Origin: an uncultured virus (IMG/VR IMGVR_UViG_3300034520_000374) | Taxonomy: Duplodnaviria > Heunggongvirae > Uroviricota > Caudoviricetes | IMG/VR virus record: IMGVR_UViG_3300034520_000374 | Strand: one strand, 5' to 3' | Length of the DNA: 64,000 nt | Shown here: piece after piece, positions 13,515 through 40,912 of the stretch | Numbering within the stretch: position 1 is the stretch's first letter | Layout: each line of letters begins with the position of its first letter | Notes under the pieces: model-generated | Told to the model about the DNA's origin: nothing | Database searches by the model: none | Seen by the model: only the letters and a program-made list of their open reading frames with translations | Position numbers and translations under genes: made by a program

Positions 13515-13538
13515 CCTGGCGGCTTGAAGTAGGCTGGC

Positions 13539-13567: not shown

Positions 13568-13588
13568 TGAGAACAAACCCCCTTTACG

Positions 13589-13628
13589 AAAATCCCCTTA
13601 GCTGAACGGCTAAGGGGATTTTTATTTT
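13589..13628 (+). terminator. Intrinsic terminator
   Basis: AAAATCCCCTTAGC-TGAACG-GCTAAGGGGATTTT followed by TATTTT. Confidence 0.9.
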
Positions 13629-13689
13629 GGCGTTGTGAGGTGACATATAAGGATTATAAACAAAAAAGGAAAGGGGTAGGTGTTGCAGT

Positions 13690-14124: not shown

Positions 14125-14154
14125 AAACAGTAAATGTAATAGGGGGTCGTAAGA

Positions 14155-15591: not shown

Positions 15592-15619
15592 AAATGCCCA
15601 TTTCAAAGGGCATTTTTTT
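15592..15619 (+). terminator. Intrinsic terminator
   Basis: AAATGCCC-ATTTCAAA-GGGCATTTTTTT. Confidence 0.8.
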
Positions 15620-15685: not shown

Positions 15686-16558
15686 ATGAGAAAGCTCGTA
15701 GCGATTGTCTTATTGGGATTGATGGTGGCATGCTTGGTAGCAGTGCCAGCATTTGCGGAAGGAGAGGACAAGGCAACAAAGACCCTTGAAGAAGTAGTCA
15801 ACAAAAATGCACAGGAGGTGCAGTCTCAGACACAGCAAACGACACAACAGCCAGGTCAGCCGGCAACAAATACAGGCAATACTACCCAGAAGAACAGCAT
15901 AGATAGCGGTAAGGATATTATAAAGGACCTTGGTAAAGTTACCGATATGACTGAAAAGATGCCTGAGGTGGAGAAAGCTGGTAACGGAATAAAGCGTATA
16001 GTAACAATACTGGTGCAGATTATATCTTATGTTATTACCTTTGGACTAGCTTTAAAGGTTGCACTAGACTTAATGTTTATCGGACTACCATTCACGAGAG
16101 GGCTTTTAGCTAATGGGTACACTGGAAATCCGCAGGCTGGCGCTGGTGGTATGCCAACCCCTAGTGGAATGACTCCTGGAATGGGTGTGGGCATGGGCAT
16201 GCCTGGTATGGGTTACGGTGGATACGGAGGTTACGGATACCACAGGCCATTTGGTTTTTCACCTTTTGGAGCTGGTGGAATGACGAATCCTGCAATGCAA
16301 GGCTCAGGGTTTTTTGGCAGAATACAGTGGGTTTCTAACGCGGCATTAAATGCTGTAGCAGCGGAAACTACAATAGGTCCTGACGGTAGGCCGGTCAGTC
16401 CTCTAAAAGTATATGCAAAGGACATGATGATTGTGCTCGTATTGACTCCTATACTGCTCGTGTTAGCAGTAACTGGAGTATTAACACAGCTAGGGTTTAT
16501 GCTTGGTGAGCTTATATCTAATGCTCTCAGGAGCTTCGGAGGTAGTTTAGGTGCTTAA
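15686..16558 (+). CDS. Membrane protein, paralog family member 1 (pilin-like?)
   Basis: Signal peptide (VPAFA), two hydrophobic blocks, ALDLMFIGLPFTR and WVSNAALNAV motifs, and a Gly/Met-rich insert. Confidence 0.75.
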   Translation: MRKLVAIVLLGLMVACLVAVPAFAEGEDKATKTLEEVVNKNAQEVQSQTQQTTQQPGQPATNTGNTTQKNSIDSGKDIIKDLGKVTDMTEKMPEVEKAGNGIKRIVTILVQIISYVITFGLALKVALDLMFIGLPFTRGLLANGYTGNPQAGAGGMPTPSGMTPGMGVGMGMPGMGYGGYGGYGYHRPFGFSPFGAGGMTNPAMQGSGFFGRIQWVSNAALNAVAAETTIGPDGRPVSPLKVYAKDMMIVLVLTPILLVLAVTGVLTQLGFMLGELISNALRSFGGSLGA

Positions 16559-16856
16559 GTCAATAGAGGCATTGCGAAAGAAAAATGTTATTGAGCATAA
16601 GTATAATCTTAAAAGGCGTGAGGAGTTAAGCACGCTTAGGATTGAGTCGGCTTACAGGGCAAAGCTATACGATGAGATAAAAGTCATTGAGCTGTTGCTC
16701 AATGACGATAATGTAAAGTCGGTAGTCATTGAGGTGCCAAAGCAGCACATAACAAAGTTCTTAAGGGCAATATATGGTGAAGAATTCATGCAGTACAATA
16801 TAACGCAACTCGATGAATACACCTTCGAAATAGGTAGAAAGATTGTCAACTTCTAA
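16551..16856 (+). CDS. Hypothetical protein
   Basis: GGAGG RBS. Overlaps the end of the previous gene. Confidence 0.75.
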   Translation: MLKSIEALRKKNVIEHKYNLKRREELSTLRIESAYRAKLYDEIKVIELLLNDDNVKSVVIEVPKQHITKFLRAIYGEEFMQYNITQLDEYTFEIGRKIVNF

Positions 16857-16876
16857 TACGGGAGGTGGTACATGAC

Positions 16877-17221
16877 ATGAAAAGCATGACTGTCCAAGAA
16901 AGAATCGACGACATAGTAAGGAGAAGCGGTTTCAGTGAGGAGATAGTGCGTCGTGTATTAAACGCGGAGAGGGAAAGCATATTAGAGTCATTAAAGCATG
17001 GTGAGAGGGCAACACTCATAGGGAGATGTACAATAGTACCAGAGTTGAGAAAGTCACTAGACATCGGGGGTAAAATAAAGACAGTTATAAAGCTTAAAGC
17101 CTCACCAAGTTACTCTCTTGAGTCAGAGCTTGCTGGATTAGAAAGGTTTATCAAAGGAGACACGGGCGATGACGATAATGATGAGGGGGTAATGTTAAGG
17201 CAATTACCAGGTTTGGTGTAG
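16877..17221 (+). CDS. HU/IHF-like DNA-binding protein
   Basis: I.DI.RRSG.S.E.V.RVL.A..ESI.ESL..GE...L.G.....pattern of HU helices followed by the beta arm. Confidence 0.65.
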   Translation: MKSMTVQERIDDIVRRSGFSEEIVRRVLNAERESILESLKHGERATLIGRCTIVPELRKSLDIGGKIKTVIKLKASPSYSLESELAGLERFIKGDTGDDDNDEGVMLRQLPGLV

Positions 17222-17233
17222 GGGGCATAGTAG

Positions 17234-17866
17234 ATGCTGTATGTTACACATAAGAGGTTCGCTATATTTTGGGCTTTGCTCGGTGTCATGTATCTGTATT
17301 ATAAAGGCATGACAGAGATAAATTATTACTTAGCATTAATGCTTGTGGTGCCTTTTTCTAAAGTTGGAGCAGTGTTTCCTGACCTTGACCATGATTGGGA
17401 GAACGTGAAATTCAAAAACATACTTACTTGGGTAGTTAACAAGCTTATACATCTTACTGGTGGAAGGCACAGGAGTTGGCAGACACACAGCATAGATATA
17501 GCTGTTATTTGCACAATATTATCAGTGTACTTACCTGAAAAGCTGTACACTTTGGGTAAGGTATCACAGGTGAACAGAGAGGTTTTGAGCATTGTAATGA
17601 TTGGTTTCTCGCTTGGGTGGCTGAGTCACATATTTTCAGATATGCTAACTACAGGTAAAGTTAAATTACTATGCTTTGCGAACTGGCATGTAGGTTTTGT
17701 GCCAAGAAGATTTCTTGGACTCCAGTTCAAGACAGGAGGGCAATGGGAATGGTTTGTTAGCTCAGTCACGGATAAAATAAACGTGATAATAACAATAGTG
17801 GCATTGGCATTCCCAGCTCTCTTAAAGTACAATGTCTTGGGCTTAATCTTAAAGATTAAGGGGTGA
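17234..17866 (+). CDS. Membrane-bound metal-dependent hydrolase (YdjM/DUF457-like)
   Basis: TH, GAVFPDLDH, HRSWQTHS and GWLSHIFSDMLT motifs. Confidence 0.85.
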   Translation: MLYVTHKRFAIFWALLGVMYLYYKGMTEINYYLALMLVVPFSKVGAVFPDLDHDWENVKFKNILTWVVNKLIHLTGGRHRSWQTHSIDIAVICTILSVYLPEKLYTLGKVSQVNREVLSIVMIGFSLGWLSHIFSDMLTTGKVKLLCFANWHVGFVPRRFLGLQFKTGGQWEWFVSSVTDKINVIITIVALAFPALLKYNVLGLILKIKG

Positions 17867-17873
17867 TGTAATC

Positions 17874-18704
17874 GTGAAGAGGTTTCTAACAGCGTACGTA
17901 GTAGCTGTATTGCTGACCGTGCTTGTGTTCCCTATTATTGCTTTCGCAGCTGATGGTGATAACATATTCGAGAATAGCTACAGTGAAGATAACACTAACG
18001 CATACTTATCGGAGATATGTAAGGTAGATAAGTCAAAAGGAGCAATTATCCTCGATAAAAGAATAGAGGCCATCGTGAAAGAGTCAGATAGGTCCAATGC
18101 ACCAAAAACCAAGCATTTGACAATTACCAAAGATGGCATTAGCTACACCAAGGATGTAACCGATGATGCTTATAGGGAGCTTGTGACACTCGGCAGAGAT
18201 GTATACGACAGAATGAAGGTTAAACAACGCATAGAGGAAATGGGTAGTAGTGTGAATGTAGAGGCTGATACCGGTAGAGCTTCTGTGATGCTATCCGGGC
18301 TGCAGCCACTCATAAGTTTAATAGTAGGTATTCTAGCATACCTTGTTGTTCTTGGCATGACTTTATTTACGGCTATGGATATTTGTTTCATTACAATGCC
18401 TGTGTTCAGGAACAGGGTAGAAGAAATGAAGCAGTCGGGTAATGCAGCAATGGTTAAGTACGGCAAGGATGGAGAACCAAAATTACGTTGGGTCAGTGAT
18501 GAGGCACAGTATGCAGTAATTACATGCACAGTAGACTCAGGGAGGAACCCATTAACAGTTTACCTGCAAAAGAGAATATGGGCACACATCATGGTAGCTA
18601 TAGTCATTTACATCCTGCTTACCGGTAACATCCAAATGATAGTTAATATAGCAATTAACTTCGTCAGCGGCATACTTGATATACTCAGCGACCTTGGACG
18701 CTAA
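17874..18704 (+). CDS. Membrane protein, paralog family member 2
   Basis: Signal peptide (IAFA), AMDICFITMPVFR, WVSDEAQYAV and GRNPLTVYL motifs. Confidence 0.75.
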   Translation: MKRFLTAYVVAVLLTVLVFPIIAFAADGDNIFENSYSEDNTNAYLSEICKVDKSKGAIILDKRIEAIVKESDRSNAPKTKHLTITKDGISYTKDVTDDAYRELVTLGRDVYDRMKVKQRIEEMGSSVNVEADTGRASVMLSGLQPLISLIVGILAYLVVLGMTLFTAMDICFITMPVFRNRVEEMKQSGNAAMVKYGKDGEPKLRWVSDEAQYAVITCTVDSGRNPLTVYLQKRIWAHIMVAIVIYILLTGNIQMIVNIAINFVSGILDILSDLGR

Positions 18705-18729
18705 AAGAGAAGCGGGGTAGGTGTTATGA

Positions 18730-19188
18730 ATGAATCCTACAGATATAAAGGAGGGCATTGCAGAGCAGCTGAATGTTCCTTATGGGATAGACTTTGCAAA
18801 ACTGGGAGAAATACAATACTTAGTAGATACAGTAGCATCCGTAATCCTTGGTGTGATTGCCTATTCAATAGTAGCCCTGCTTACAATAGTCACCGCTATA
18901 GACATTGCATACATTACTCTGCCAGCGTTCAGGGAAAGAGTACAGGCACTTAAATGGGATGGGTCTAAGCATTTTTACTTAAGGGCGGTATCCAGAGATG
19001 CCATCCTGGCTGTTGAGGAGGCAGTTCTTTCGGACTCAGGTAAATCAGCAATATCAATTTACCTTTGGAGAAGATTGAAGACATATATGATTAGTGTGAC
19101 AATACTATTTATAATAGTTGGCGGTGGGGTGTTCATAAAGAACTTTATTGTAAATGTGATTGTTACCATTTTAAGGGCATTCATGTAG
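18730..19188 (+). CDS. Membrane protein, paralog family member 3
   Basis: AIDIAYITLPAFR, AVSRDAILAV and GKSAISIYL motifs. Confidence 0.75.
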   Translation: MNPTDIKEGIAEQLNVPYGIDFAKLGEIQYLVDTVASVILGVIAYSIVALLTIVTAIDIAYITLPAFRERVQALKWDGSKHFYLRAVSRDAILAVEEAVLSDSGKSAISIYLWRRLKTYMISVTILFIIVGGGVFIKNFIVNVIVTILRAFM

Positions 19189-19214
19189 CTACACGCAAGT
19201 GTAGCTATTATTTT
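19186..19214 (+). terminator. Intra-operon hairpin or weak terminator
   Basis: TAGCTACAC-GCAA-GTGTAGCTA followed by TTATTTT. Confidence 0.6.
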
Positions 19215-19241
19215 ATATGGGACCTGGAGGTGGTGCGCTGT

Positions 19242-21500
19242 ATGCTAAAGAGGATAGCTTTAATCTTATGTATGATGAGCATGTTATTAATATTAACTGG
19301 ATGTGAGGCCGCATGGGTTAAAAAGACAAACCTAGAGCAGGCTATGGGTAATCGTGCAGCTCTAAATCTTGAGCTTATAAATAGGCTTGTTAACAGCGGT
19401 TTACTTAGTGAGGACGCTGCAAAAGGTATGCGAGAGTCCTTGGAGAGATTAAAGGAGAACCCATCGAGCTTAAATCCAAACCAGAGCATTTCGTGGTATC
19501 TTAACACAAGTATAGGGGAATGGAGTACTGAGCCAACACAGGATTCGACTTTTCCAAAAAGCAATGCACCAACTGGAAATAGTGGTAGGGACATACCGGA
19601 TTCTGAGATTAAGCCATTAGATATTATTGCAGCTAACCAGTGGGCACAGCTTAACGCATTAATGACTTGCAAGGTATATGTGCTAAAGGAGCAGCCGGGA
19701 CAGCCAGTAAATACAGACGAGATAAAAGGCCTACTTGAGGCAGCAAAGACGAAGACCGGAAGTGAGCAAGAAGAAGCATTCAATGCTTTAGTATCTAAGG
19801 GATATTTTAAGGATAGTGGGAAATATTTAACAGACCCTAATGACCCCAAGAATCAGATGGTGATTGTAACAAAACGTATAACAGAGACTGAGAGTGTTCC
19901 TGTGAGAGACTCTAAGAACAATATCATAGGACATGTGACAGTTAAGAGGAATTATGTTAATGAGATGGGATATGACCTTGTAGTGTGCGACAAGGATAAT
20001 ATTCCAGTTGCTACATTAAGGTTCAGGGAGATAAACAAGGAGGCAGTAGACAAACTGCTTGGGGCTGGAGATGCTCCGAAAGATAAGTTTTTACTGGATA
20101 TTAAAAATAAGAGAGCATTCTTACTTGAGTATCCTGCTTATTATATAAGCAGTGTAAGCCTTGATAAAGATGGCAACTATAAAACAAGTTTTAGTGAGTC
20201 AGACCTACTAGTTAATCTGCTATCCGGTAAGATTAAGGATAAAAGCGGGAAAGAACTCAAGCAATCAGAGAACATACAAGAGGTTTATGGGAGCAACGGA
20301 GCATTTGTTATATATGGAACGGGGGACATAAAGAACGTTGGTTTTGAGCAGGCTACTGTAAAGGGCGGCACTATAGTTCTTAGGGATTACCTTGAGTTGT
20401 CATATATGACTGGCGTGGTGAACGGCGAAGATTTTGTAACATTGGGCAGGCGCGTGCGCGTAAGTGATTTTGAGGGGAGCAAGCAGACTGTATTTGCTAA
20501 CTTCATAAATAAAAAAGGCGAAGTTATGAAGGACACACCTAATATACTCATAAGCCATCTTATGGATATAGATTCTGGCGTAGACGGTAAGGCCATTAAG
20601 CTTGGAATAGTTACAGATACAGACGAAAAAGAAGGCGGAGGACAGGCTGGAGGCAACCAGCAAGGTAGCACTGGACAGAGCCAGGGCAACCAGGAGAATA
20701 GCAATAATACCGGAGACGAGAACGATACAGGGCTATTATCAGATGCCAACATAAACAGGGCTTTACTTAAGCCAATATACAAGGAGTCCATAAAGCCGAC
20801 CACAAGATTCCCAGGCGAAAAGGTCGGTATAGCAAGTATGTCTAATTTAGGTAACAAGATGATTTTTTATGGTATGGCAATCGACATGAGTCCTTTCGAG
20901 TCAGGTCTATATAACGGGTGGATAATGAGAGATGACTTAGAAGTAGGGAGCTTAACGTGGTGGAATAGGTGGTTGAACACCAAAGAGTTGGATTATGGTT
21001 ATTCCATTGACCCTGAAATACTCAGGCAGTTTTTCATGGGAAATTACAGCTTCGACATTATGAAAAGGGAAAACACAATTATATTCAATTTAGGCACAAT
21101 TGCGAAGATACAACAGGGCTATAACGCGGAAGATAGAGCTAGAAATGTAAACTACTTCAGAACATTATTTGCTGGACTTGGGATACTTCTAATAGCATAC
21201 GCGATAGTGCTGATGGCTGCATGGGTGTTCGATGTCAACCTGATAACAGGTCCTAAGCTAATGAGTGTATTAACATTTGGGAAGTGGGAGGCAATAAGCA
21301 GTTATGAGGAGTTGCCTAATATGGAGTTGGGCGAGAAGCACTACATGACTTTTGAAAAGACATTAAATAATTGCATTGTCATAATATGTATAGGTGTATT
21401 GTTGTTATTTATAGATGTTGTAGCTATAGTGAAACAGCTCATTGAAATATTCGGCGGCGTTGGAGAATGGATAGGAAAATCAATATTTAATAAAATGTAG
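19242..21500 (+). CDS. Large lipoprotein with C-terminal TM helices
   Basis: Lipobox LTGC and two hydrophobic segments near the C-terminus. Confidence 0.75.
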   Translation: MLKRIALILCMMSMLLILTGCEAAWVKKTNLEQAMGNRAALNLELINRLVNSGLLSEDAAKGMRESLERLKENPSSLNPNQSISWYLNTSIGEWSTEPTQDSTFPKSNAPTGNSGRDIPDSEIKPLDIIAANQWAQLNALMTCKVYVLKEQPGQPVNTDEIKGLLEAAKTKTGSEQEEAFNALVSKGYFKDSGKYLTDPNDPKNQMVIVTKRITETESVPVRDSKNNIIGHVTVKRNYVNEMGYDLVVCDKDNIPVATLRFREINKEAVDKLLGAGDAPKDKFLLDIKNKRAFLLEYPAYYISSVSLDKDGNYKTSFSESDLLVNLLSGKIKDKSGKELKQSENIQEVYGSNGAFVIYGTGDIKNVGFEQATVKGGTIVLRDYLELSYMTGVVNGEDFVTLGRRVRVSDFEGSKQTVFANFINKKGEVMKDTPNILISHLMDIDSGVDGKAIKLGIVTDTDEKEGGGQAGGNQQGSTGQSQGNQENSNNTGDENDTGLLSDANINRALLKPIYKESIKPTTRFPGEKVGIASMSNLGNKMIFYGMAIDMSPFESGLYNGWIMRDDLEVGSLTWWNRWLNTKELDYGYSIDPEILRQFFMGNYSFDIMKRENTIIFNLGTIAKIQQGYNAEDRARNVNYFRTLFAGLGILLIAYAIVLMAAWVFDVNLITGPKLMSVLTFGKWEAISSYEELPNMELGEKHYMTFEKTLNNCIVIICIGVLLLFIDVVAIVKQLIEIFGGVGEWIGKSIFNKM

Positions 21501-21506
21501 CCGGAG

Positions 21507-24500
21507 GTGTTGTTAGTGAGGTCAAGAAAATTTACGAGGGTAACTTCAGTGGCAATATTAGCGGTTTTAATCATTACAACCATATCAACGGCTGTGGCTG
21601 CTACGGGTACTCCTAAAACTACCATTATTGGTACCAATCTTGCTTTAGGGTCACCACTACTAGACACAACGAATTTTGACCCAAAGACCTGGAATAAATG
21701 GGAAATGGTTGCATTCGGGGTATTTTTGAGTAACTTTGCATATCCTTTAGTTGACGACTATAAAAGTGCATTTACAGCATGTAACGAAGGTACAAAGGGG
21801 TCAGGGTTAAAGGCGTTGCAGTTTGGGTCGGGTAACGACCCATCAACAAACGATATACTCAAGGAAATGGTGAACTATGCCGTAGCGGTGCAGTCATCGA
21901 CATTAAAGCCTATAAAGTATAGGTCATTAAAAGATGATAACAGCGGGTTGGATGAATATAAGGACGCAGTGTTTGAGGATTTGTTTCTCTACAATAAGCT
22001 TGGATGGCTTGAGAAGCTCGTAAGTGGGCAGGTAATTGCCAAAGTAGGGGACTGGGGCTTAACTGGACCTAGCAGGTTTATATACAACGAGTTCGTAGTG
22101 GAGATTGATGGTGGGACATACCAGAGAGTCTTCAGCTACGATGACGGTTGGGATTTACAGATGCTGGCAGCTTGGCTAACCAGGGTATTTAGCGGTGAGT
22201 ATAGCGGTGTGGCTAAGAGTAACTTCGAGAAGTTTAGAAAAAGCCCTTTGTTCCTCGACGCTTTCGGGAATATAGTTGTTCTCCATGGAGGTAGGCCATA
22301 CATTGTGTTCCCTGCTGCGGCAAGTCAATATATAACACAGACAAAGCAATATAACCTGCTACAATCAGTGTTGTTTAACGGCAATTATCTTCCAGCATCT
22401 GGAGAGAGCATCATAAACAACGGTGTATCTGAAAACACCAGTAGAGGTGGTGGAGGACCTTTATCTGGAACAACTGATTTTGGGGTTGGCAAGGTTGTAG
22501 TGTCTTTCGATACAGATATACTACTTATGGAGAAAGCCAAGCAAAAGGTAAAAATAAGTGAGTCAGGGGTTCCAGGTAGCTTGGTAAGCTGGTTAGGAAT
22601 TTCTGTACCTAGTGTAGCTGTAGAAGAAGCCGAATTAGGTAATGCTGTTGACAATGTGATGGCAGCCGACATTAACAGCAGCAGAATACCTTTCAGAGTG
22701 GAAATTATACGTGGGGAAAAGATGCCTAACTTACCTGACGCTGTGAAATACTTAGCAAAGTATGTAGATGACCTTGCTTCAATATACCCAGTTGCAAAAG
22801 ATGTACCGATTCTTAATTATATTAACACTAACAATGGTAAGTTGCAGCTGTTCTCTAATCCTGTGGTTACATCTGTTACAACCACTAATCCTTTAGAGAA
22901 GCGGTATATTAACAAGATGTACGAGTCCATATACGGCGGCGGGTATGTGCAAGCCGGTTCGGAGCCTATAGATTATGGCATGTTGAGGGCTGGACTGCAA
23001 AGGACAAAAACCTGGATGGGCCTTGGAAGATGGGCCTACGTTGGCAAGTACGATAACATTGAGGCAATAAAAGAGGATTATTACAGTTGGATGTCAATGC
23101 CTGCGTCTCCGATTCTTAAGGCATTCTTAGGGAAGGAAGTCGGAGTAAAACAGGGAGTTAGCGTTCCGTCTGATGTGGCTGTAGCCGACCTTGGCAGGTA
23201 TTATAACATACTGAGCAAAGACCAGAATAATGTTGTGGCAGGCAAGGTATTTGACCTGACAGAGTCAGAGGTGCAACAGTCGTTTAGAAGAATTATCAAG
23301 GGATATCCGATATCACGCGAGATAGAAATAGCGAGCAACATACTAGGAGTCAGGCAGGGGACAGAATTTGCTTTGTGGTCGCCTTTTATATATGCGACAT
23401 ACTTAAACTGGTACGGCATAACGTCTGACGGTGGTCATAAGTTCAATACCAAATTATTCAGCGATAAGTCCGACATACTTAAGTTCGACATGGAGAAGGT
23501 GTCAAAGGGGTTATACTTGACCGAAGAAGAAAAGAAGAAGGAAGTTCTTAATTACACTTACATGATGTTGCACCCAACAGCAGGTAGGGAATATAGGGCA
23601 AGGTTAATAATGGATGCCATATCTGACTGGATTTACAGGACATATCAAAACATAGTTTACGGCGGTGTTACGCAGTATTACAGTGGCAGTTACGGTAACA
23701 TTGGGACGAGAAGTGCCAATGGATTCCTGCACATAAACAGTTACAGCGATAATTTCATGACGAAATGGTTTATTAACAAGTATGTAGAATATATAGTCAT
23801 AATTTTGGGTATATGTGCAGTGATGATAATTCTAATAGGCATTCTAACACAGAAGAAACTCATATGGTTTTTGGCATCGCTATTTATAGTGGTGAACGTT
23901 TGCATTTTGATGCCATCAATAGGAGATGTGACTCCTTACGTGGCAGATAGTGCTGTGCAGAACATGTTTAAGGACAAGATGTCATATTGGGCAATGTCTG
24001 AAGCCATAAGGAACAACGAAATAGAGCAGAACGCTAACAATAAAGCATCTGCTGCGGAGGAACAGGCGCTTGGAAGCGATGTTGACGCCAAGAAGGTAGC
24101 CAATCTAGTACGTATGTTGAACATATCTTATTTGGATAGGGCATTAATGCTAAAGCTGGACATATCAAAGAAGATAAACGAGACACAACTAGAGAACTTT
24201 GACGAAATTCAGAAGTTGCAATCAGCGCGGTGGCTGCTGCCAATACTCATGAGGCAGTTTACAGCCAACGACAGGTCGCCAAATTACATTTACGTGCCTC
24301 TTGGAGACGAATATATTAACATGTCAAACCTATACTGTCTATATGTGCCAAGCGATATAGGTAGTAAAAGAGCCGTAGACGCTGCAAATGATGCTGGTGC
24401 AGCTGCAGCAACGAATGAGGAAGTAAAGAGCAGAATATTGAGCGATAGCCAGAAAACAGCATTATTCGCCGATTATACAAAGACATCATTTGATTCAGAC

Positions 24501-26405: not shown

Positions 26406-26421
26406 GCAAGGGGGAATTAAA

Positions 26422-27816: not shown

Positions 27817-27840
27817 TGAATAATTGGATATTTAGGAGGT

Positions 27841-29793: not shown

Positions 29794-29815
29794 GGTATGA
29801 GGGAGATGCATTGAA

Positions 29816-31204: not shown

Positions 31205-31210
31205 TGGAAA

Positions 31211-33286
31211 GTGGCGTTGTTAAAATTGTTCAACATTAAAAAGTTCAAGCAGGACTTTGCCGAGAAAGTGGAGTTGTACGACACTATATTAGCCAATCTA
31301 ATAGCCGGAAACTCAGTTATAGAACCAGACATAAACCTGGATAACAGCAGGATATCGATAGGGTTTAGCAGCATAGCATCTGAGAGCCAGGTCTCCAGAT
31401 ACTTTCTAATTAGAAATTTACCTGATTATTTGCCTGCTAATTCTTTAGATAACCTCAGGGGTACATGTATACTGCCTGGGGTGAAATTTAATTTTTACCT
31501 GTACGCTTCACCTCATATGATACGCTGGGACTCACCAGAAATGAAGAATAGGCTCGATATATGGAAGCAGTACACTGCATCACAGCCAGATAACATTAAT
31601 GTGTTTGAGTACAGGCAGAAAAGGAGTGCCAGCTTGGCCAAGCAGAGGATTATATATTCAACAAAATATTTGAATGAGGCAGAACTTGATTTCAAGAGGT
31701 CATTATTTAAGGTGGCTATACTTATAGAAATCACAAGCAGGCGGGATGAGCAATCACTCGTAAATTTAAGCAGGTCAATCAGTACATTCAAGAATATATG
31801 CAGGAATATGGATATAAAGCTTCTGGAAATCAAGATGAACGTTCTTGATTGGCTTGCTTATTTTGGCATATTCAGCCTTAAGAACATAAGGGAGGTAGCA
31901 AACAAGGTAAGCAGAAGGACTTTGACGGACGATATACTGGCAAGCTTCAACCCTTATAAGCAAGGAAGGGTTGGGGATGATGGCGTATGCCTTGGCATAG
32001 ATGTGCTGTCAAAAGTCCCTGTCCTAAAGAAGTTCAAGGCGGACCCTGACGCACCTGAAAACTGGCTTATCTGTGCCGAAACAGGCGGAGGTAAATCATT
32101 GTTTATCAAGGTGCTATTGACTTACTTGCTTGCAGATGGGTTTGTAGTTACCGTAATGGACTACGAGGGCGACGAATACTTCAATCTAGCCAACTACATA
32201 AAGGCCGGCAATCCTGATGATGTAAAAATCATATCAATGGGTAAGGGTTCAACTGAGTATTTTGACCCAATGGAAATAGCCGACCTTACCGGTGAGGACG
32301 ATATAGACAACGAGTTAAAGGAAAATGCTATAACCTATACGCTGGCAATTTTTAGAGTAATAGTAGGTGGGCTTGAAGGCAACATAAACCAGTGGGAAGA
32401 ACGGGTCATATCCACAGCAATAAAAAGGGTTTACGAGAAAGCAGGGGTAACCGAGGACAAGAGCACCTGGCATCGCTCTAAAGGACTTAGAATAAAAATG
32501 GTATACGATGAGATAAAGTGCATGGCAGAAACAAAAGAGTTCGTTGACGAGGATGTGGATAACGTAAAGCATAAAGCAGCAGTCCGCATAGCAGACTGCG
32601 CATCGGTTTATTTTGAGGAAGGGGAGGCTAAGTCAGGAACATTCAAGAACCCGATTTCGGTCAACGAGCTTTACAAGGCAAGGTTTATAGTATTCTCCTT
32701 CGGTATGCGTGGTGCCACATCCTCGCAGATTGACCCTGTAATCCTTGCACTTAAGCAGTTGTCCGTTGCAAACGTAGCAATACAGATATCAAACTACTGC
32801 AAGTATGTTAGGAAATGCTTCAATGTCAAGGTATGGGAAGAGTTCCAGCGTTGGGGTGAAGTCAGAGGTTCTTCAGAAATCATCCTAAACGCTATGACAG
32901 GCGGTCGTAAACGTGGGGACGTGAACTTTATAATCACCAATAAGCTCGGTGCTATACTTGATGACGACAATCCAATAGCGGCTGGGCTACGTGAGAATAT
33001 AACTTCTAAGGCTATAGGGAAAATTAACGACAAGACAATAAGGCATAAGTTCTGCGAAGTATTTAGTGTACCTGAGGTTGAAGGTGTACTAGACATGATA
33101 GCTAAAGCAAGCATGGCAGACGAGACAAATAATAAGGTAATAGCAAGCAGTTCAGGCAACAGGTACAAGTACGCTTTCTGCTTAATGTTGGACAATGGCA
33201 AGAAAGCAGTGGTTAAAGTTATGCTACCTCAGGTACTGAGGCAGTCTCAGCTATTTAAGACAGGAGTAAATGTAGAAAGCAGGTGA
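31211..33286 (+). CDS. VirB4/TraE-like conjugative transfer ATPase
   Basis: Walker A AETGGGKS, VMDYEGDEY, FDPM, Walker B VWEEFQRW and GRKRG motifs. Confidence 0.8.
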   Translation: MALLKLFNIKKFKQDFAEKVELYDTILANLIAGNSVIEPDINLDNSRISIGFSSIASESQVSRYFLIRNLPDYLPANSLDNLRGTCILPGVKFNFYLYASPHMIRWDSPEMKNRLDIWKQYTASQPDNINVFEYRQKRSASLAKQRIIYSTKYLNEAELDFKRSLFKVAILIEITSRRDEQSLVNLSRSISTFKNICRNMDIKLLEIKMNVLDWLAYFGIFSLKNIREVANKVSRRTLTDDILASFNPYKQGRVGDDGVCLGIDVLSKVPVLKKFKADPDAPENWLICAETGGGKSLFIKVLLTYLLADGFVVTVMDYEGDEYFNLANYIKAGNPDDVKIISMGKGSTEYFDPMEIADLTGEDDIDNELKENAITYTLAIFRVIVGGLEGNINQWEERVISTAIKRVYEKAGVTEDKSTWHRSKGLRIKMVYDEIKCMAETKEFVDEDVDNVKHKAAVRIADCASVYFEEGEAKSGTFKNPISVNELYKARFIVFSFGMRGATSSQIDPVILALKQLSVANVAIQISNYCKYVRKCFNVKVWEEFQRWGEVRGSSEIILNAMTGGRKRGDVNFIITNKLGAILDDDNPIAAGLRENITSKAIGKINDKTIRHKFCEVFSVPEVEGVLDMIAKASMADETNNKVIASSSGNRYKYAFCLMLDNGKKAVVKVMLPQVLRQSQLFKTGVNVESR

Positions 33287-33293
33287 TGTCTGT

Positions 33294-33446
33294 ATGTACC
33301 TTTTGCTATTTTTGGCTATTGTGTTCGCAGTATATATAAATACATTTAAGAATGAGTTCGACAAAGAGGACATGGGTAAAGCAACATTATTTATAATCTT
33401 AAGCGGGTTGACCATAATGTTTGTTGGCATAATATCTAATTTGTAG
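33294..33446 (+). CDS. 50-aa two-TM small membrane protein (not in the ORF track)
   Basis: MYLLLFLAIVFAVYINTFKNEFDKEDMGKATLFIILSGLTIMFVGIISNL. AGGTGA RBS. Fills the gap between the two ATPase genes. Confidence 0.7.
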   Translation: MYLLLFLAIVFAVYINTFKNEFDKEDMGKATLFIILSGLTIMFVGIISNL

Positions 33447-33449
33447 TCA

Positions 33450-35822
33450 TTGGTGGTGATATATGTGCCTGTAGGTGATTTGAGGAATAAAGTATCTTCT
33501 GACGACGTTGAAAAGATAAAGAAAAAGCGTAATCCTCCTGAATATGAGGAAGGGTTTGAGCCTATGGAAGATGGCGAAATAAGCTTTAGCGATTTATTTG
33601 AGGACACTGGAGGAAATAGCGGGTCTTCTGGGAAACCTTTGACAGCAAGTGAGATATTCGGTGGGCCATTACCATCGGCTCAGAAGCCTGCAGGTCCTGG
33701 AGCTCCAGGGCCTGGAGGTTTTGCTACACCTGGAGCCCCACCAGGTTCGCCAGGAGTGCCTGGGACTACACCAGGGGTGCCTGGTGCACAGCCTTTGTCA
33801 GGACCGATGAGCCCATTTCCTCCTGGTCCTAGACCTTTCGGTGCACCTTTAGGCACGCCTTTTGGCGGCCCACAGGTGGGTGCGCCAGGGCAGCCTACAC
33901 AGCAAGGTCCAGACACTCTAGATAAAGTTTTCGACAGTGCTGGAGACGCTCTAGTATCCATAGGCAAGTTATTCGTACATGCCGTAAAGACCATAGGCAC
34001 TAGAACAGCAGATGATTGGGGAGTGTACTGCAGAAACATAATAATTACATCATTCGGAATTTCAGCAGTAGCCATATTAATAAGCATAATAGGTGCAGCT
34101 TCTGGGATTAGACCATTAAAATTCTTTGGACTGCCTTTTCAAATGATTGTAGCATCGATGTTATCTCTAGGTACTGGGTTAATAGGTGTTGGATGCTCAG
34201 CTTTTGCAATCTTACTTGAGAAAGACCCTTCTGTAACTACAATACAGCAGCTGGATAATGTCGTGGACGATAGCGGTAGAGACGCTGGGGCATACGAGGA
34301 TGGGCTCGACGAAGCACTAGACAATCTGCTAGAAGGGATAGAAGATGACGGTTTAGATGACATATATGAAGATGAAGAACCTGAGGAAGATATTGACGGT
34401 ACACAGGAGATAGAGCAGGTAAAGAACGAAGAAGTTGATTTCGACAAGTATTTAGAGAAAGTACCTGAAAATGTCCCTATGCTGCATAGGGAGATGCTGT
34501 TCAGCACATTTAAGCCATTTTTACCACAGAACACTCCTGGATTCTCCAAGCGTAGGGAGATAGACCCTGAGTCTGAAGAGTTTGCTACACTTGAGACTAT
34601 ATGCTTAAAGGCTTTGGCGGCGGCCGCTAAATGCGAGCTCGAGGAAATCAGCAGTTCATTAGAGTCGGCTGTAGAAACATACTTTTGCTATGAGCTACGC
34701 ATAAAAAGAGTAAGAGGACTTAATAAATTAGAAGATATCGAGAGGGAGATAACAGCTTACTTCAGGGAATCCAGCGATGATGTTGGGGTATCAAGCGTAG
34801 TAGACCTTGAGGGAGACTTCTACAAGGTAATTGTGAACAAAGGAGTAAATGCCATAGTTACATTCGGTGATGTATTTACACTTAAAGAGGCAGTTGACTT
34901 CTATGTTAATCCAAAAAATATATTGCCTCTAATAGCTGGTGTAACCGAAAGCGGTAAACCAGTATTAATTGACGGAAAGCATTACAATACTATCTTAGTA
35001 GCCGGTAAACCACGTTCCGGTAAATCGTGGTACGTGCTATCAATCTTAATGTCTTTGATGATGTTCAACACACCAGAAGATGTCTGCTTCTTACTCATTG
35101 ACCCTAAAGAGTCAACGCTCTTCAAGACATTAGCACTTATGCCACATGTTTGTGGGCTTCACAATGACTCGAATGTGCTAGATGTATTGAGGGATGTAAT
35201 TGAGTCTGAAGGTGCTAGGCGTAAGAAACTTTTAGCAGACCATAAATGCGACGACATCTGGGATTTAAGGAAGCGCAAAGGGATTAAATTACCAGTTTTA
35301 TATGTCGTAATAGATGAAGTTATGACCATAGTATCGAATCTCGGCGACAGGTCGAAAGAGTTCTTTGACTTAATGAAAGTTATTATATCGCAGTTACCTT
35401 CGACAGGCATAAGGTTAATTTTCGTCCCGCATAGGGCTCAAGGAGTCGTCGACAAGACCATAAGATTCCTAATTGACTACGTGGCAGCTGTTAGGGCCGA
35501 CCCAGAAGTAGTTAGGGAAACATTAGACATAAAGAAGTGGGACAGGGCACTTGTAAATCCTGGCGATACAGCTTTGAGGTTACAGGGGCACGGTAAAGAG
35601 TCATTCGTTAAAGGAATTGCATTGACGACTTCGGATAGCGACAACATGGAGTTAATAACCAATATAGCAAGAGCTTTTTATAAGATGGGCGTCGAAATAC
35701 CAGATATGCATAGCTTAGGTGTAGGCTACAACAGGGATGAGGACAACATACGTGAAGAACTCGATGTAGGCAACACTTCATATCGTGTGCAGTACAGTAA
35801 TTTTGATGAGGACGAAGTATAA
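33450..35822 (+). CDS. FtsK/SpoIIIE-family membrane ATPase (TcpA-like coupling protein candidate)
   Basis: Two TM helices, Walker A AGKPRSGKS, LLIDPK, E..RR, Walker B VVIDE, and a Pro/Gly-rich N-terminus. Confidence 0.85.
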   Translation: MVVIYVPVGDLRNKVSSDDVEKIKKKRNPPEYEEGFEPMEDGEISFSDLFEDTGGNSGSSGKPLTASEIFGGPLPSAQKPAGPGAPGPGGFATPGAPPGSPGVPGTTPGVPGAQPLSGPMSPFPPGPRPFGAPLGTPFGGPQVGAPGQPTQQGPDTLDKVFDSAGDALVSIGKLFVHAVKTIGTRTADDWGVYCRNIIITSFGISAVAILISIIGAASGIRPLKFFGLPFQMIVASMLSLGTGLIGVGCSAFAILLEKDPSVTTIQQLDNVVDDSGRDAGAYEDGLDEALDNLLEGIEDDGLDDIYEDEEPEEDIDGTQEIEQVKNEEVDFDKYLEKVPENVPMLHREMLFSTFKPFLPQNTPGFSKRREIDPESEEFATLETICLKALAAAAKCELEEISSSLESAVETYFCYELRIKRVRGLNKLEDIEREITAYFRESSDDVGVSSVVDLEGDFYKVIVNKGVNAIVTFGDVFTLKEAVDFYVNPKNILPLIAGVTESGKPVLIDGKHYNTILVAGKPRSGKSWYVLSILMSLMMFNTPEDVCFLLIDPKESTLFKTLALMPHVCGLHNDSNVLDVLRDVIESEGARRKKLLADHKCDDIWDLRKRKGIKLPVLYVVIDEVMTIVSNLGDRSKEFFDLMKVIISQLPSTGIRLIFVPHRAQGVVDKTIRFLIDYVAAVRADPEVVRETLDIKKWDRALVNPGDTALRLQGHGKESFVKGIALTTSDSDNMELITNIARAFYKMGVEIPDMHSLGVGYNRDEDNIREELDVGNTSYRVQYSNFDEDEV

Positions 35823-35834
35823 GGGGGTGAGACT

Positions 35835-36959
35835 GTGCAGAACTTTAATATAGGCATGGTAATTAGCCTGGGTGATTTAGAGTTAGCGGTAGATTATATA
35901 AATAATCGTGATGTAATAAAGGACGAGCTCAAGAAGACTAAAAATGCACAGTCCTCACATATCGAGGTCACCAGTCAGGGCTCATCCGCATCACCTGAGG
36001 TTGCAGGTATACAAAAACAGGAAGTCAGCGAGGAAAAAGAAGTTTACGAGGAAGACATTGAGATAGACGATGAAGAATTTGAGGTAGACGATGAAGAATT
36101 TGAGGTAGACGACGAAGAAATTGAGGCAGACGAGGAATTTGAGGTAGATGCTGAGGGATTTGAGGTAGACGACGAAGAAATAGCTGTTGAAGAAACCGAT
36201 GATGACGACATAGGATCAATTTACGATGAGCCTGAAGATTCGCAGGATGAGTATGAAGAAGAGGAAGATTACGTTGAGGAGGTTAAAGCTACTCCTACAG
36301 CACAGGTTAAGGTTGAGCCTAAACAGCAGGGCACAGCATCTGTTCTATCTCCTCTAGACCTACTGCAGAAAAAGAAAGGTTTAGCAGGACAGCAGGCTGG
36401 CAGTCAACAGGTGGATAGGCCGGTGCAGACTGGGCAAAAGCCTAATGAGGTCAAGACAGCAGGACCTGTTCAACAGCCTGTGCAACCAAAGCAGGTAGTT
36501 GAGCAGCCGAAGCAACCTAATTTGGCACAGACACAGCAAAAACAGCCTAGACCACAAGGACAGGTAGTTAGCATTAAGCGAGCACAGGGTAACATTAAAT
36601 CATCAGAGCAGCCTACAGGTACATTAGCAAGCAGGGTTGTGGATAACTATAAGCATTCTGTGGATAAACAGGTGCACCCTGTTGGTAATATACAAAAGAA
36701 GGATGTGCAGAATACAGCAAGTAAAGATGTTAGTAGTAGGGAAGTTAATGCAGATGCCTCAAGGGTAAGTATGTATTCCGCTATGGACGAGAAGGCTCTA
36801 TATAAGGAAGTGAAGAAGTTCCTGGAGTCGAGGCATGTAGCAAAGGCTCCTGTTGATAGAAAAATAGTGGAGGCTGAATTTGGTGTAGATAACGTGCTCA
36901 AGTTAATAAAAAGAGGATACTTAGTAAGTGTAGGCAGAGGCATAACAATAGGATATTAA
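35835..36959 (+). CDS. Acidic and Gln-rich disordered protein with a small C-terminal domain
   Basis: EVDDEEF repeats and Q/P-rich linker. Confidence 0.75.
   Translation: MQNFNIGMVISLGDLELAVDYINNRDVIKDELKKTKNAQSSHIEVTSQGSSASPEVAGIQKQEVSEEKEVYEEDIEIDDEEFEVDDEEFEVDDEEIEADEEFEVDAEGFEVDDEEIAVEETDDDDIGSIYDEPEDSQDEYEEEEDYVEEVKATPTAQVKVEPKQQGTASVLSPLDLLQKKKGLAGQQAGSQQVDRPVQTGQKPNEVKTAGPVQQPVQPKQVVEQPKQPNLAQTQQKQPRPQGQVVSIKRAQGNIKSSEQPTGTLASRVVDNYKHSVDKQVHPVGNIQKKDVQNTASKDVSSREVNADASRVSMYSAMDEKALYKEVKKFLESRHVAKAPVDRKIVEAEFGVDNVLKLIKRGYLVSVGRGITIGY
36060..36180 (+). repeat. 21-bp coding tandem repeat (EVDDEEF), about 6 imperfect copies
   Basis: GAGGTAGACGATGAAGAATTT-like units. Confidence 0.8.
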
Positions 36960-36966
36960 CAGGGGG

Positions 36967-38910
36967 TTGAGTAATTTGAAGCGAGTATTAATTAGTTTAC
37001 TAGTCATTTTTATGCTAGGTAGCATAGTAAAAGGTATGTTTTTCAGCGGTAAGGCAGCCAAACTGCCTTTAGTGCCACCGCTAACTGAGCAGGAGCTAAC
37101 CGATTATTATAAAAAGGCTCTTGCTTATGATAGCATTGTGCCAAAGAGGGATTCGACTCAAAATAATTACGAGATAAACGAAGTTGATGAAGCAACAAAG
37201 AAAAAGATTATAAAGGCACAGGAGATAGTAGAACAGCAATTGTTCAGACATAATTATGTGCCTGGGTCGGTTCTCTTGGATAGCCAGCAGTATTACATTA
37301 AGGCAGTAATAGACGACAAACAATTAATTAAGGCTTCGGTAGATAAAGTTGGCAAGGCATTTGATTTTTACATTATTGATGTTAAGTATAACATAAGACC
37401 GAAATCTCCAGGTACTATATTGGACGCGGCAAAATACTTAGGTATACACGGGGCGTTCAAGCAAAGCGGTGGAAAGGATTACGTTGACACAAACTTCCTT
37501 GCTGCAGCTAACAATAAAGTATGGGAGTACTTGGTGGCTAATCAGAAAACGAGCACAATAAATGTAGGTACCGAAACACCTCCACCTCCACAATCTCAGC
37601 AACCTCAACAGCCTCAGCAGACTCAGCAAGAACAGCAGGCTTCGCAGGGTCAGAATAAGCAGGAACAGCAAGCACAGGTTGCTCAGCAACCTCAGGTACA
37701 GCCTCCAGCACAAGAGGCAATACTAAGTGACTACGGTCTAGCTGGAAGGACTCCAAAAGTGGATGTTAAACTTTTCAATAAAGTTATGGGAAGTTCACTG
37801 ACGAACACAGCATATATGCCAGTTTTATCAATAGTGTTCACTCCTAGTGGTGAGGCCGAAACTATAGCTGGTTATGGCATATACCCAGAGGGTAATGCAG
37901 GAATGAGGTTGTTCGGGTTCGACAGGGGTTCTATGGACGGTACACTGGTAATGAGATACCTATTTAAGGGCGGTATTGACGATGTATCAAAGCTTGAGGC
38001 AATAGCTGCATATCCTGTGAGCATGGAGGTGAAATTCAATCCACAGCGTAAAGAGGTTGTTGTACCTGATTTTGTAATGACCGAGATTGGGAAATTGATA
38101 GACAGGTATGATAGGGCAGTCGTTAATAACGACATTACAGCTCTTATGTCTGGCGAGATAGTAAGGGATGTGGGCATAGCTATAAGGAATGGTTTCACGC
38201 AAAACTATGTGTACTTGACGAGGCATATAAGTAAAGTTAACGGTATAGTGGATAAGAAAGGCAGTTATTATTTAGTAGAGGTAGAGTCGTTGGTGCAGGA
38301 GAGCCCGAAGAAAACACAGTTGTACGGCACATACAAAGACAAAAGTTTATTTGTAATTGAGCAGCAAGGCAGTAATTTTGTAATTAACGACATATTGAAG
38401 GTTGGCAGAACTCTTGTGGATGAGCCTAAGCTAGAACTTGATGACTCAATACAAAAACATTTGGCAGCATTAAATCTATCTGGGGCAATCAGTGAAGATA
38501 GCAAGAAGGGCATAAGAGAGCTGTTGAACAATCTTTATAAGGCATCTACAGATAGGGTATTAAAAGGAATGTACAGCTGTTTCAATGATGACGTTAATGT
38601 GTTGCCGAGTTCTAAAAAGGAGTATCTAAATTCTCAATTGCGTGGGTGGCTTGTAAAATATGGCGTTGATGTGAAGTCGACATACACTGGAAAGGTTAAT
38701 GAGTGGCTTGGAGGCTCAGCTAGTCAAGCTGAGTTGATAACCGATGAGCTCATTGAGTATGAAGGTAAGGACTCCGGTCAATACATAAAGATGTATTATC
38801 TAGTGTCTAACTTCAACGGTAAGTGGGTCATTGACGACATGAAGATTATTAGGCTAGAGGACGTTAGTGGGGCTAGGTTAGCCGAAATAAAACAAAAGCT
38901 TGGGCAGTAG
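36967..38910 (+). CDS. Membrane-anchored protein with NTF2-like domains (VirB8/TcpC-like candidate)
   Basis: N-terminal anchor and Q-rich linker. Repeated helix-plus-strand domains end in EQQGSNFVINDI and SNFNGKWVIDDM. Confidence 0.6.
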   Translation: MSNLKRVLISLLVIFMLGSIVKGMFFSGKAAKLPLVPPLTEQELTDYYKKALAYDSIVPKRDSTQNNYEINEVDEATKKKIIKAQEIVEQQLFRHNYVPGSVLLDSQQYYIKAVIDDKQLIKASVDKVGKAFDFYIIDVKYNIRPKSPGTILDAAKYLGIHGAFKQSGGKDYVDTNFLAAANNKVWEYLVANQKTSTINVGTETPPPPQSQQPQQPQQTQQEQQASQGQNKQEQQAQVAQQPQVQPPAQEAILSDYGLAGRTPKVDVKLFNKVMGSSLTNTAYMPVLSIVFTPSGEAETIAGYGIYPEGNAGMRLFGFDRGSMDGTLVMRYLFKGGIDDVSKLEAIAAYPVSMEVKFNPQRKEVVVPDFVMTEIGKLIDRYDRAVVNNDITALMSGEIVRDVGIAIRNGFTQNYVYLTRHISKVNGIVDKKGSYYLVEVESLVQESPKKTQLYGTYKDKSLFVIEQQGSNFVINDILKVGRTLVDEPKLELDDSIQKHLAALNLSGAISEDSKKGIRELLNNLYKASTDRVLKGMYSCFNDDVNVLPSSKKEYLNSQLRGWLVKYGVDVKSTYTGKVNEWLGGSASQAELITDELIEYEGKDSGQYIKMYYLVSNFNGKWVIDDMKIIRLEDVSGARLAEIKQKLGQ

Positions 38911-38913
38911 AGG

Positions 38914-38952
38914 GTAAAAATACCGATAGCAATACGCTATCGGTATTTTTAC
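38914..38952 (+). terminator. Intrinsic terminator ending the transfer-like operon
   Basis: GTAAAAATACCGATAGC-AATAC-GCTATCGGTATTTTTAC. Confidence 0.9.
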
Positions 38953-39011
38953 TCTCCTTGGGAGGCTGCATTAAGGTATGTTAGGTGAAAATAATATAGG
39001 AGGTATCAGTT

Positions 39012-39354: not shown

Positions 39355-39389
39355 AAAATCGTGGCCTTAAGGCCACGATTTTTATTTTT
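39355..39389 (+). terminator. Intrinsic terminator
   Basis: AAAATCGTGGCC-TTAA-GGCCACGATTTTTATTTTT. Confidence 0.88.
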
Positions 39390-40894: not shown

Positions 40895-40912
40895 TAGCAG
40901 GAGGGATATCTC

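Follow-up and report, generated by a model that had tools for sequence, protein, structure and literature searches.

We analysed a 64,000-nucleotide stretch of DNA recorded as an uncultured virus (IMG/VR IMGVR_UViG_3300034520_000374), here called the window, and within it an operon of 16 genes, g01 to g16. The operon probably encodes a conjugative DNA-transfer apparatus of the type found on pXO16, a giant conjugative plasmid of Bacillus thuringiensis sv. israelensis whose transfer locus is named tip (transfer of israelensis plasmid). It would represent an atypical Gram-positive type IV secretion system (T4SS), carried by a giant plasmid-like element with its own replisome. An earlier note on this DNA, made from the letters alone, had recognized the core logic of a DNA-transfer machine, and that reading was upheld: the operon combines two ATPases, one VirB4-type and one FtsK-type for coupling, with membrane channel proteins, and its gene order is conserved. 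The same note had considered the system undescribed, which was not borne out because the cluster is collinear with a pXO16 region that fits the published tip locus; pCW3 had been in its comparison set, but pXO16 had not. Judged by homology, the operon codes for a distantly related version of the tip-type transfer machine of pXO16, a type that has been published and is poorly understood.

The pXO16 sequence used for comparison was that of pBTHD789-1 (NC_018516), as in PMC6199540. In a tblastn search of 72,556 plasmids, the VirB4-type ATPase g12 matched 22 records (21 from Bacillus and 1 from Paenibacillus), and the best ten matches were 350-kb B. thuringiensis plasmids, each matched at one place with 32.9% identity and 92% coverage (E 4e-84). 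Collinear tblastn matches in pBTHD789-1 comprised the clamp-loader gene that precedes the operon (37% identity), g04, g05/g06, g08 (22%), g09, g12 (33%), g14 (27%) and the SNF2 helicase gene that lies beyond it (32%). More sensitive comparisons used hidden Markov models (HMMs) built from each window protein and its metagenomic homologues, with E-values, here and below, for a 33-protein set. These gave matches of 6e-190 for g12, 3e-161 for g08, 7e-108 for g14, 4e-57 for g09, 4e-38 for g04, about 1e-36 to 5e-44 for g05/g06, 2e-4 for g11 and 2e-6 for g01, the last to the first open reading frame (ORF) of the pXO16 block (2165-2929). Collinear homologues of the core genes (4e-38 to 6e-190) are present in the same genomic setting, and the homology to the pXO16 region holds gene for gene at the sequence level.

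The two clusters share their gene order, which includes three paralogous membrane proteins, an HU-like ORF, a YdjM hydrolase, a polytopic protein of about 1800 aa, a g09 homologue, the VirB4-type ATPase, a peptide of about 50 aa and the FtsK-type ATPase. Their neighbours are also the same, with the clamp loader upstream and the SNF2 helicase downstream, and both lie on giant elements with nearly all genes running one way, their own replication genes and no known relaxase. The tip locus is described as a 25-kb region with 16 coding sequences, including two ATPases and a wall hydrolase, that is needed for conjugation (PMC9673590). It lies within the pXO16 replication region, and the system is regarded as distantly T4SS-like, as in pCW3 (PMC6199540). 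In pBTHD789-1 the block 3′ of the clamp loader measures about 25.6 kb, in agreement with the published size, and as a whole it fits the tip locus. Transfer of pXO16 is stated to be unusually fast (PMC9673590).

The arrangement is not confined to the window. Five relatives were compared, all of them filed as viral records in IMG/VR. The earlier note had suggested looking for synteny of the 16 genes in other large replicons, and the order was indeed kept in the three relatives with the full cluster (G002, G003 and G004), which are records of 134-268 kb. G002, a 249,770-bp record, has 15 of the 16 genes in order and lacks g13 alone, a 50-aa gene that the 60-aa floor set for ORFs would drop; G003 has homologues of all 16, and G004 of all except g13. 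The two remaining relatives (G005 and G006, 33% identical at g12) keep g04, g05/g06, g08, g09, g12 and g14, which is the set shared with pXO16. Across three clades, the cluster consists of this core and a changeable shell. The clamp-loader gene was present in all five relatives. Elsewhere, a 26-kb IMG/VR contig encodes proteins 99-100% identical to part of the window, and contigs carrying the g12 family reach 547 kb and 721 kb. The core was also found in a B. subtilis plasmid of 136 kb. More generally, a short form of the cluster occurs on B. subtilis plasmids of 136-156 kb that are typed as non-mobilizable, and consists of genes for a g09-like protein, an AAA ATPase, an unnamed product, a g12-like protein, an M23 peptidase and FtsK (Table 1).

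The class of g12 carries much of the argument, and by profile comparison its ATPase domain is VirB4-type and not HerA. The window protein matched the NCBIfam models VirB4_plasma (3.3e-16), the CD1110 family (8.4e-13) and TraC (1.9e-7), and in Pfam it gave a generic match to DUF87 (1.4e-8). A profile of 25 close homologues matched VirB4 weakly (4AG5, 7e-4); profile A4, built from 53 diverse members, aligned with the whole VirB4 C-terminal domain (4AG5, E 6.4e-21), profile positions 246-611 falling on chain residues 5-356. Similarity of A4 to HerA (4D2I, 2e-3) was limited to 43 P-loop residues, and none of the 53 members matched a HerA NCBIfam model at 1e-3; because of these two results we exclude g12 from the HerA group. 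Conjugation models were matched by many of the same members (conju_CD1110 by 36 of 53, VirB4_plasma by 33, TraC by 21 and VirB4_CagE by 8), and the archaeal DNA-import ATPase CedD by 7. The VirB4-like assignment made in the earlier note is thus confirmed, and neither outcome that it had named as a refutation was observed: g12 does not group with non-conjugative HerA ATPases with the gene order unconserved elsewhere, nor do all components map to a described MPF_FA or MPF_FATA system. The family is small, with 453 cluster representatives at E <=1e-3 and 174 at E <=1e-30 in an exhaustive profile search of 1.84 billion, a search that does not reach canonical VirB4.

Alignment of g12 to the NCBIfam VirB4 models begins only at residue 162 of the protein (model positions 403/894 and 307/752), and g09 is of interest in this respect. 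The earlier note had called g09 a protein with two transmembrane (TM) segments: hydropathy gives one strong helix at 36-54, the second hydrophobic helix (60-82) comes from the model, and the pXO16 homologue has two TM segments. An AlphaFold model built from 41 sequences had a mean predicted local distance difference test (pLDDT) score of 68, with values mostly of 80-93 over residues 30-290, a fall to 62-64 around residues 91-110 and a disordered tail. Among the Foldseek matches listed (ranks 1-10 and 13), all were R388 entries with TrwK/VirB4, none reaching E 1e-3, and the model resembles TrwK residues 15-217; comparison with PDB sequence profiles gave nothing credible for g09. The databases hold 127 homologues. 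A paper on R388 assigns residues 15-400 to the VirB4 N-terminal domain, around which VirB3, a small protein of two TM helices, is wrapped. From this moderate structural match we infer that g09 may combine a VirB3-like hairpin and the first half of the VirB4 N-terminal domain on a polypeptide of its own.

The likeness to R388 (TrwM/TrwK) would then extend to both proteins, the g12 ATPase domain being VirB4-type and g09 modelled like TrwK 15-217 after a two-helix hairpin, as in VirB3. In contrast to R388, the part resembling the N-terminal domain and the ATPase are separate proteins in the window, with two genes between. A tentative reading, which we consider possible but doubtful, is that the VirB4 motor is split. 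Its parts would be a free-standing g09 (VirB3 plus half of the VirB4 N-terminal domain) and a separate ATPase, g12, with genes for a MinD/ParA-type ATPase and a coiled-coil protein between them. Together with the FtsK-type pump and no recognizable relaxase, this would define a distinct T4SS branch serving a large unrecognized family of giant, replisome-encoding plasmids that are filed as viruses. Searches of the window cluster with Pfam and NCBIfam found no VirB2, VirB5, VirB7, VirB9, VirB10 or VirB11, and VirD4 was found neither there nor in the five relatives.

CONJScan defines a conjugative T4SS by a relaxase, a coupling protein (T4CP) and VirB4. A coupling protein of TcpA/FtsK type is supplied by g14, in agreement with the earlier assignment of an FtsK ATPase, and g14 is a membrane-anchored ATPase, the counterpart of pCW3 TcpA (HMM match 8e-9). 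The best NCBIfam matches of g14 were EssC (1.5e-14) and EccC (1.1e-13), followed by FtsK, and its PDB matches were to the same three proteins. Such matches would suit a machine that is not conjugative at all, either a protein exporter resembling the type VII secretion system (T7SS) with its EssC-type ATPase or a Ced- or ComB-like DNA importer, and the CedD matches in the g12 family point the same way. We regard this as very unlikely. A single FtsK domain, in one stretch, is present in g14, and no other T7SS family was detected among the 16 proteins with Pfam and NCBIfam; VirB4 conjugation models were matched by far more g12-family members than CedD was. In addition, the homologous pXO16 region is reported to be needed for conjugation (PMC9673590).

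Comparison with pCW3, a 47-kb plasmid of Clostridium perfringens, places the machine further. In both the Tcp system and the window, one co-directional operon encodes a coupling ATPase of FtsK type that has a membrane hairpin (TcpA), an ATPase of VirB4 type, a YdjM-type hydrolase (TcpI), a large polytopic protein and small membrane proteins, which are essential in pCW3. The g04 family HMM matched TcpI at 1e-7, and g04, which was found in all five relatives, is its counterpart; the earlier identification of a membrane hydrolase stands, as g04 belongs to the YdjM family. The window differs from pCW3 in the topology of g08, which is not that of TcpH, and in having no sequence-detectable homologue of TcpM, TcpG or TcpC. 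With hhalign, the g09 profile found nothing in TcpF.

Several observations weigh against the assignment to the tip type. No transfer has been demonstrated for the window element or its close relatives, and function is carried over from a homologue at only 20-37% identity; 9 of the 16 proteins have no tblastn match in pXO16 at E 1e-3. The position of tip and the genes that were mutated are known from review descriptions only. A TipB-like cell-wall hydrolase was not found in the window cluster, and no peptidoglycan hydrolase domain was detected in the 16 cluster proteins or in 58 homologues. The gene after the giant one in pXO16 (ORF 12433-14565) encodes 710 aa that match NlpC/P60 weakly and may be TipB; it has no homologue in the window cluster. 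The g12 profile aligned with pCW3 TcpF at the Walker A motif only (hhalign probability 1.6), and no fused g09-g12 form occurred among 150 representatives of the g12 family, 15 longer ones included. Library scans found no relaxase in the window, and the relaxase families PF03432, PF03389, PF01076, PF02486, PF08751 and PF07514, as well as VirD4 (PF02534), were each absent from all five relatives (G002-G006), a set in which two records have a completeness of >=90%. Further differences from pXO16 lie in g07, the MinD-type domain of g10, g15 and g16, for which no pXO16 homologue was detectable, and in origin, the window being from a subsurface metagenome by run label and pXO16 being a Bacillus plasmid.

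The lack of a recognizable relaxase, and of VirD4, would also suit a machine that moves double-stranded DNA without a relaxase, in which g14 is the true translocase and g12 only builds the channel. Streptomyces TraB provides a precedent as an FtsK-type translocase of double-stranded DNA. ArdC-like genes are typical of single-strand transfer, however, and one is present in the window; pCW3 pairs its FtsK-type coupling protein with an unusual relaxase, TcpM, which makes an unrecognized relaxase plausible here. The properties of pXO16 can be cited on either side. Its relaxase and oriT are unidentified, and it moves not only plasmids that have neither mob nor oriT but also chromosomal segments of up to 791 kb (PMC9673590); nonetheless, it is stated to transfer single-stranded DNA (PMC6199540). 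On balance we think transfer of double-stranded DNA unlikely.

The filing of the relatives as viruses raises the possibility of a giant-phage module, serving, for instance, to deliver DNA or to spread in the absence of virions. Two of the relatives are rated 100% complete by CheckV, 227 of the 247 ORFs in G002 lie on one strand, phage-like replication genes and many homing endonuclease genes are present, and a phage-like nature was proposed for pXO16 (PMC6199540). Against this, a scan with PHROGs of 229 of the 247 ORFs in G002 (all except 11 that span the borders of loci and 7 shorter than 70 aa) revealed DNA-metabolism genes and no capsid, portal, terminase or tail-sheath family, and no capsid, portal or terminase was found among the 37 window proteins. 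Moreover, g12 had no match among 50,697 phage records, and no plaques have been reported for pXO16 (PMC6199540). A phage module is therefore the least credible of these explanations, with only a very slight chance of being right, and a conjugative machine on a plasmid-like element remains the preferred reading.

In such a tip-type machine, g14 would receive and pump the DNA, like the coupling protein TcpA of pCW3, and g12 would supply the energy for building the channel and for transport across it, with g09 tethering g12 to the membrane complex. The channel itself may be formed by g08, the small paralogues g01/g05/g06 and the peptide g13, in roles corresponding to VirB6 and to TcpD/TcpE. The proteins g07 and g16 could have their roles in the wall or on the cell surface. 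Placement or assembly of the machine may fall to the MinD/ParA-type g10 together with the coiled-coil protein g11, and the HU-like g03 may help in DNA processing.

Among the membrane proteins, g01, g05 and g06 had been described as three paralogues. This is clear for g05 and g06 (33% identity, 2e-16), and the link of g01 to g05 is weaker (blastp 1.6e-4; phmmer 2e-8 for a 34-protein set). The HMMs of both g01 (6e-10) and g05 (1e-40 and 7e-36) matched the pXO16 ORFs 4696 and 5694, and g01 is conserved in G002, G003 and G004. The pXO16 match of g04 is ORF 3976-4683. In g08, the large polytopic protein recognized earlier, the hydropathy TM segments lie at 15-33, 763-806 (two) and 1389-1505 (four), a topology repeated in G002, G005 and the 1834-aa pXO16 protein. 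Comparison of g08 with PDB sequence profiles gave nothing credible, and the weak Atlas leads were DUF8208 (0.84) and, at 0.83, a cluster in which TrbL accounts for 14% of the members; g08 may have a channel-forming, VirB6 role. Weak Atlas leads (0.81-0.84) also pointed to an NTF2-like fold in g16, which had no Pfam or PDB-profile match; all Atlas leads for g08 and g16 score below 0.9, and their sequence profiles revealed no VirB6-like or VirB8-like (NTF2-fold) component. The consensus of the 13 database homologues of g16 contains LxGCS, a lipobox. The lipobox of g07 bears out its description as a lipoprotein; homologues with 25-33% identity are present in G002-G004, with the C-terminal part only in G005, and neither Pfam nor PDB sequence profiles gave a credible match. 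The small membrane peptide g13 has two predicted TM segments, as had been noted, and a 52-aa pXO16 ORF with two TM segments occupies the same position, directly before the FtsK gene.

An HU-like protein had been proposed at g03, and support was divided: the HU score (20.1 bits) is below the Pfam cut-off of 22.4, and on the other side there is a PHROG match, homologues match HU/HU-HIG and one of them exceeds the cut-off. The pXO16 ORF in the same position, before the YdjM gene, also has a weak HU-like score (5.6e-4), and we consider g03 a candidate DNA-processing accessory factor. The MinD-like ATPase of the earlier note was recovered in the C-terminal domain of g10 (AAA_31 1.2e-6 in Pfam; PDB matches to CapB kinase at 1.8e-4 and MinD at 3e-3), and conservation of g10 is confined to the C-terminal ~280 aa (38-41% identity). 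Its supposed degenerate partner, g11, is not one: it shows no similarity to g10, has no Walker A motif and gave matches of coiled-coil type only, and its weak HMM match is the pXO16 ORF in the same position (18570-19808). No Pfam, NCBIfam or PHROG match was obtained for g02, and a Pfam search extended to 75 homologues assigned no further family to g07, g08, g09, g11 or g15.

The layout of the operon agrees with the earlier description of 16 packed co-directional genes, with coding sequence making up 99.2% of 15686-38910 and neighbouring genes spaced by -8 to +41 bp. The predicted upstream terminator was found as a hairpin with a T run. At the other end, where a terminator had been placed at 38914, a pattern scan found no match. 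Folding of 38905-38990 did reveal a 21-bp hairpin, equalled in stability by none of 200 shuffles, whose T run sits within its 3′ arm, and the scan found a further terminator-like site at 39355-39382. All gene-like ORFs of at least 100 aa in the window are on the + strand, GC skew is steady and positive throughout, and GC content is about 42%. Features are listed in Table 1.

Table 1. Positions of the operon, its genes and other features in the window, and of the short cluster form on a B. subtilis plasmid
Feature	Position	Strand	Remarks
1644-aa protein of no family	746-5680	+	
ArdC-like anti-restriction gene	10723-11811	+	Upstream of cluster
Clamp-loader (DNA polymerase III delta′/tau-like) gene	14155..15555	+	PF13177 1.5e-30; conserved upstream neighbour
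Terminator-like hairpin ending the clamp-loader gene	15592..15615	+	8-bp stem, then T run
Operon g01-g16	15686..38910	+	16 co-directional ORFs, tightly packed
g01, 290-aa Gly-rich membrane protein	15686..16558	+	Signal peptide; TM segments; first of three paralogues g01/g05/g06
g02, 101-aa soluble protein	16551..16856	+	37-41% identity in G002-G004
g03, HU/IHF-like small DNA-binding protein	16865..17221	+	Bac_DNA_binding 7.9e-4; phrog_379 3.6e-6
g04, YdjM-family inner-membrane metal-dependent hydrolase	17234..17866	+	PF04307 1.5e-11
g05, 276-aa membrane protein	17874..18704	+	Signal peptide; paralogue of g06
g06, 152-aa protein	18730..19188	+	2 TM; paralogue of g05
g07, 756-aa lipoprotein	19230..21500	+	Lipobox LTGC; two C-terminal TM helices, 646-664 and 716-734
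g08, 1632-aa polytopic protein	21507..26405	+	Two large extracytoplasmic domains; 7 TM by hydropathy
g09, 464 aa	26422..27816	+	Membrane hairpin, cytoplasmic alpha/beta domain, disordered tail (AlphaFold model and hydropathy)
g10, 650 aa, MinD/ParA-type ATPase	27841..29793	+	Small N-terminal domain, acidic linker, C-terminal ATPase; Walker A at 386
g11, 462-aa coiled-coil protein without P-loop	29816..31204	+	Coiled-coil-type matches only (Pfam, NCBIfam)
g12, 691-aa VirB4-type ATPase	31211..33286	+	Walker A at 289
g13, 50-aa peptide	33294..33446	+	2 TM; homologues in 3 loci
g14, 790-aa FtsK/SpoIIIE-type ATPase	33450..35822	+	TM hairpin 197-250; PF01580 1.1e-15
g15, 374-aa acidic low-complexity protein	35835..36959	+	Conservation limited to last ~65 aa
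g16, 647-aa membrane-anchored extracytoplasmic protein	36967..38910	+	TM 7-25
Hairpin closing the operon, 21-bp stem	38910..38956	+	Folding energy (dG) -36.1 kcal/mol, z -6.58
SNF2 helicase gene	45213-46823	+	
GyrB-like gene	49449-51434	+	
GyrA-like gene	53287-55458	+	
ParB-HNH fusion gene	61264-62697	+	
Short cluster form, B. subtilis plasmid NZ_CP061871	35513-73423		M23 peptidase gene directly 3′ of VirB4-like gene; 1127-aa FtsK protein

The flanks of the operon (1-15555 and 39012-64000) form a replication and defence-evasion block, entirely on the + strand, which also contains genes for a GNAT acetyltransferase, a DnaB-like helicase, a RuvC-like resolvase and an NAD ligase. The segment 39012-45109 looks like an insertion, because in G002 the SNF2 helicase gene follows g16 with one small ORF between. 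Within this segment, two adjoining genes at 40052-41608 are paralogous (26% identity, 3e-11), the first having an HNH endonuclease domain, and at 43808-45109 a weak, sub-cut-off match to a DarT1-associated NADAR-like family (1.3e-5) adjoins a protein of the YspA/SLOG family (3.9e-15).

Some other regions of G002 were also distinctive. In a second secretion-like cluster (L014:1083-12831, minus strand), successive genes for proteins of 149-196 aa are accompanied by those for a 668-aa T2SSE-type ATPase (7e-7), a ParA-like protein and two further proteins, of 696 and 329 aa; the cluster resembles a Tad or type IV pilus module. SLH-domain proteins occur beside giants of 1821 aa (Big_9/cadherin-like) and 1840 aa (L012:15794-16771 to L013:14189-19711), and this may be a surface adhesion module, recalling the aggregation region of pXO16 as described in PMC9673590. 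GIY-YIG and HNH homing endonucleases are numerous, and the FtsK-like and g15-like genes of the cluster are separated by an inserted gene for a homing endonuclease of 660 aa (phrog_3339, 1.7e-93; L021:10465-12447, minus strand). For a plasmid, the cargo at L017-L019 is unusual, with genes for SmpB, SAM synthetase, a protein resembling a translation initiation factor, ThyX, RNase H and SSB.

The host had been assumed to belong to the Clostridia, and this was not borne out. One metagenome-assembled genome (MAG) labelled Lachnospiraceae (G007) contains two relatives, but among 401 genomes sampled from that family g12 was found in one, the MAG itself, and a Lachnospiraceae host was dropped. Contigs C168 and C80 of this MAG carry two different g12 copies, 61% and 60% identical to that of the window, and the clamp-loader gene is likewise present twice in the MAG; the bin may be mixed or contain two elements. 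A 63,785-bp NCBI contig with homologues of g12 and g09 (P0038, P0240) is labelled as a 'Candidatus Anstonellales archaeon' MAG, a label that is probably a binning error for an element of this kind. The whole stretch is contained in sequencing runs with the label subsurface metagenome, from which it may derive. In one hot-spring run, 27% of the window's sampled words were present; runs with a share of <=0.16 were not used for habitat.

We also considered whether these elements belong with the Hodor megaplasmids of the human gut, described in a preprint (PMC12934698). Like the relatives of the window, these are giant elements of Bacillota type that were initially placed with huge phages, and they have VirB4 and a VirB6 that is hard to recognize. 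They differ in carrying Rep_3, ParABM, several sortases, VirD4 and a MOBH-like relaxase. Identity with Hodor was rejected, as Rep_3 (PF01051) and sortase (PF04203) were found in none of the five relatives and not in the window, and VirD4 and TraI_2 were likewise absent from all five; a Pfam search of the first 148 ORFs of G002 found no relaxase, Rep_3 or sortase. The accessible text of the preprint mentions neither pXO16 nor FtsK. Judged by title and abstract, metagenomic relatives are treated in none of the 13 papers since 2021 that mention pXO16 in the literature searched.

The results add five points on this machine: the cluster divides into core and shell across three clades; the g12 ATPase domain belongs firmly to VirB4; correspondences exist for YdjM with TcpI and for the HU-like protein; VirD4 and six relaxase families are absent from five relatives; and there is a structural lead for g09. 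The pXO16 machine, of which little is understood, had seemed a peculiarity of Bacillus; the same machine appears to serve a wide family of giant elements outside Bacillus that are filed as viruses. Its conserved core provides concrete targets for pXO16 genetics, and the predicted fold of g09 offers a structural lead for a core protein. If the doubtful reading of a split VirB4 motor were true, this T4SS branch would serve giant plasmids, on contigs of 134-721 kb from gut and subsurface habitats, that have so far been filed as viruses.

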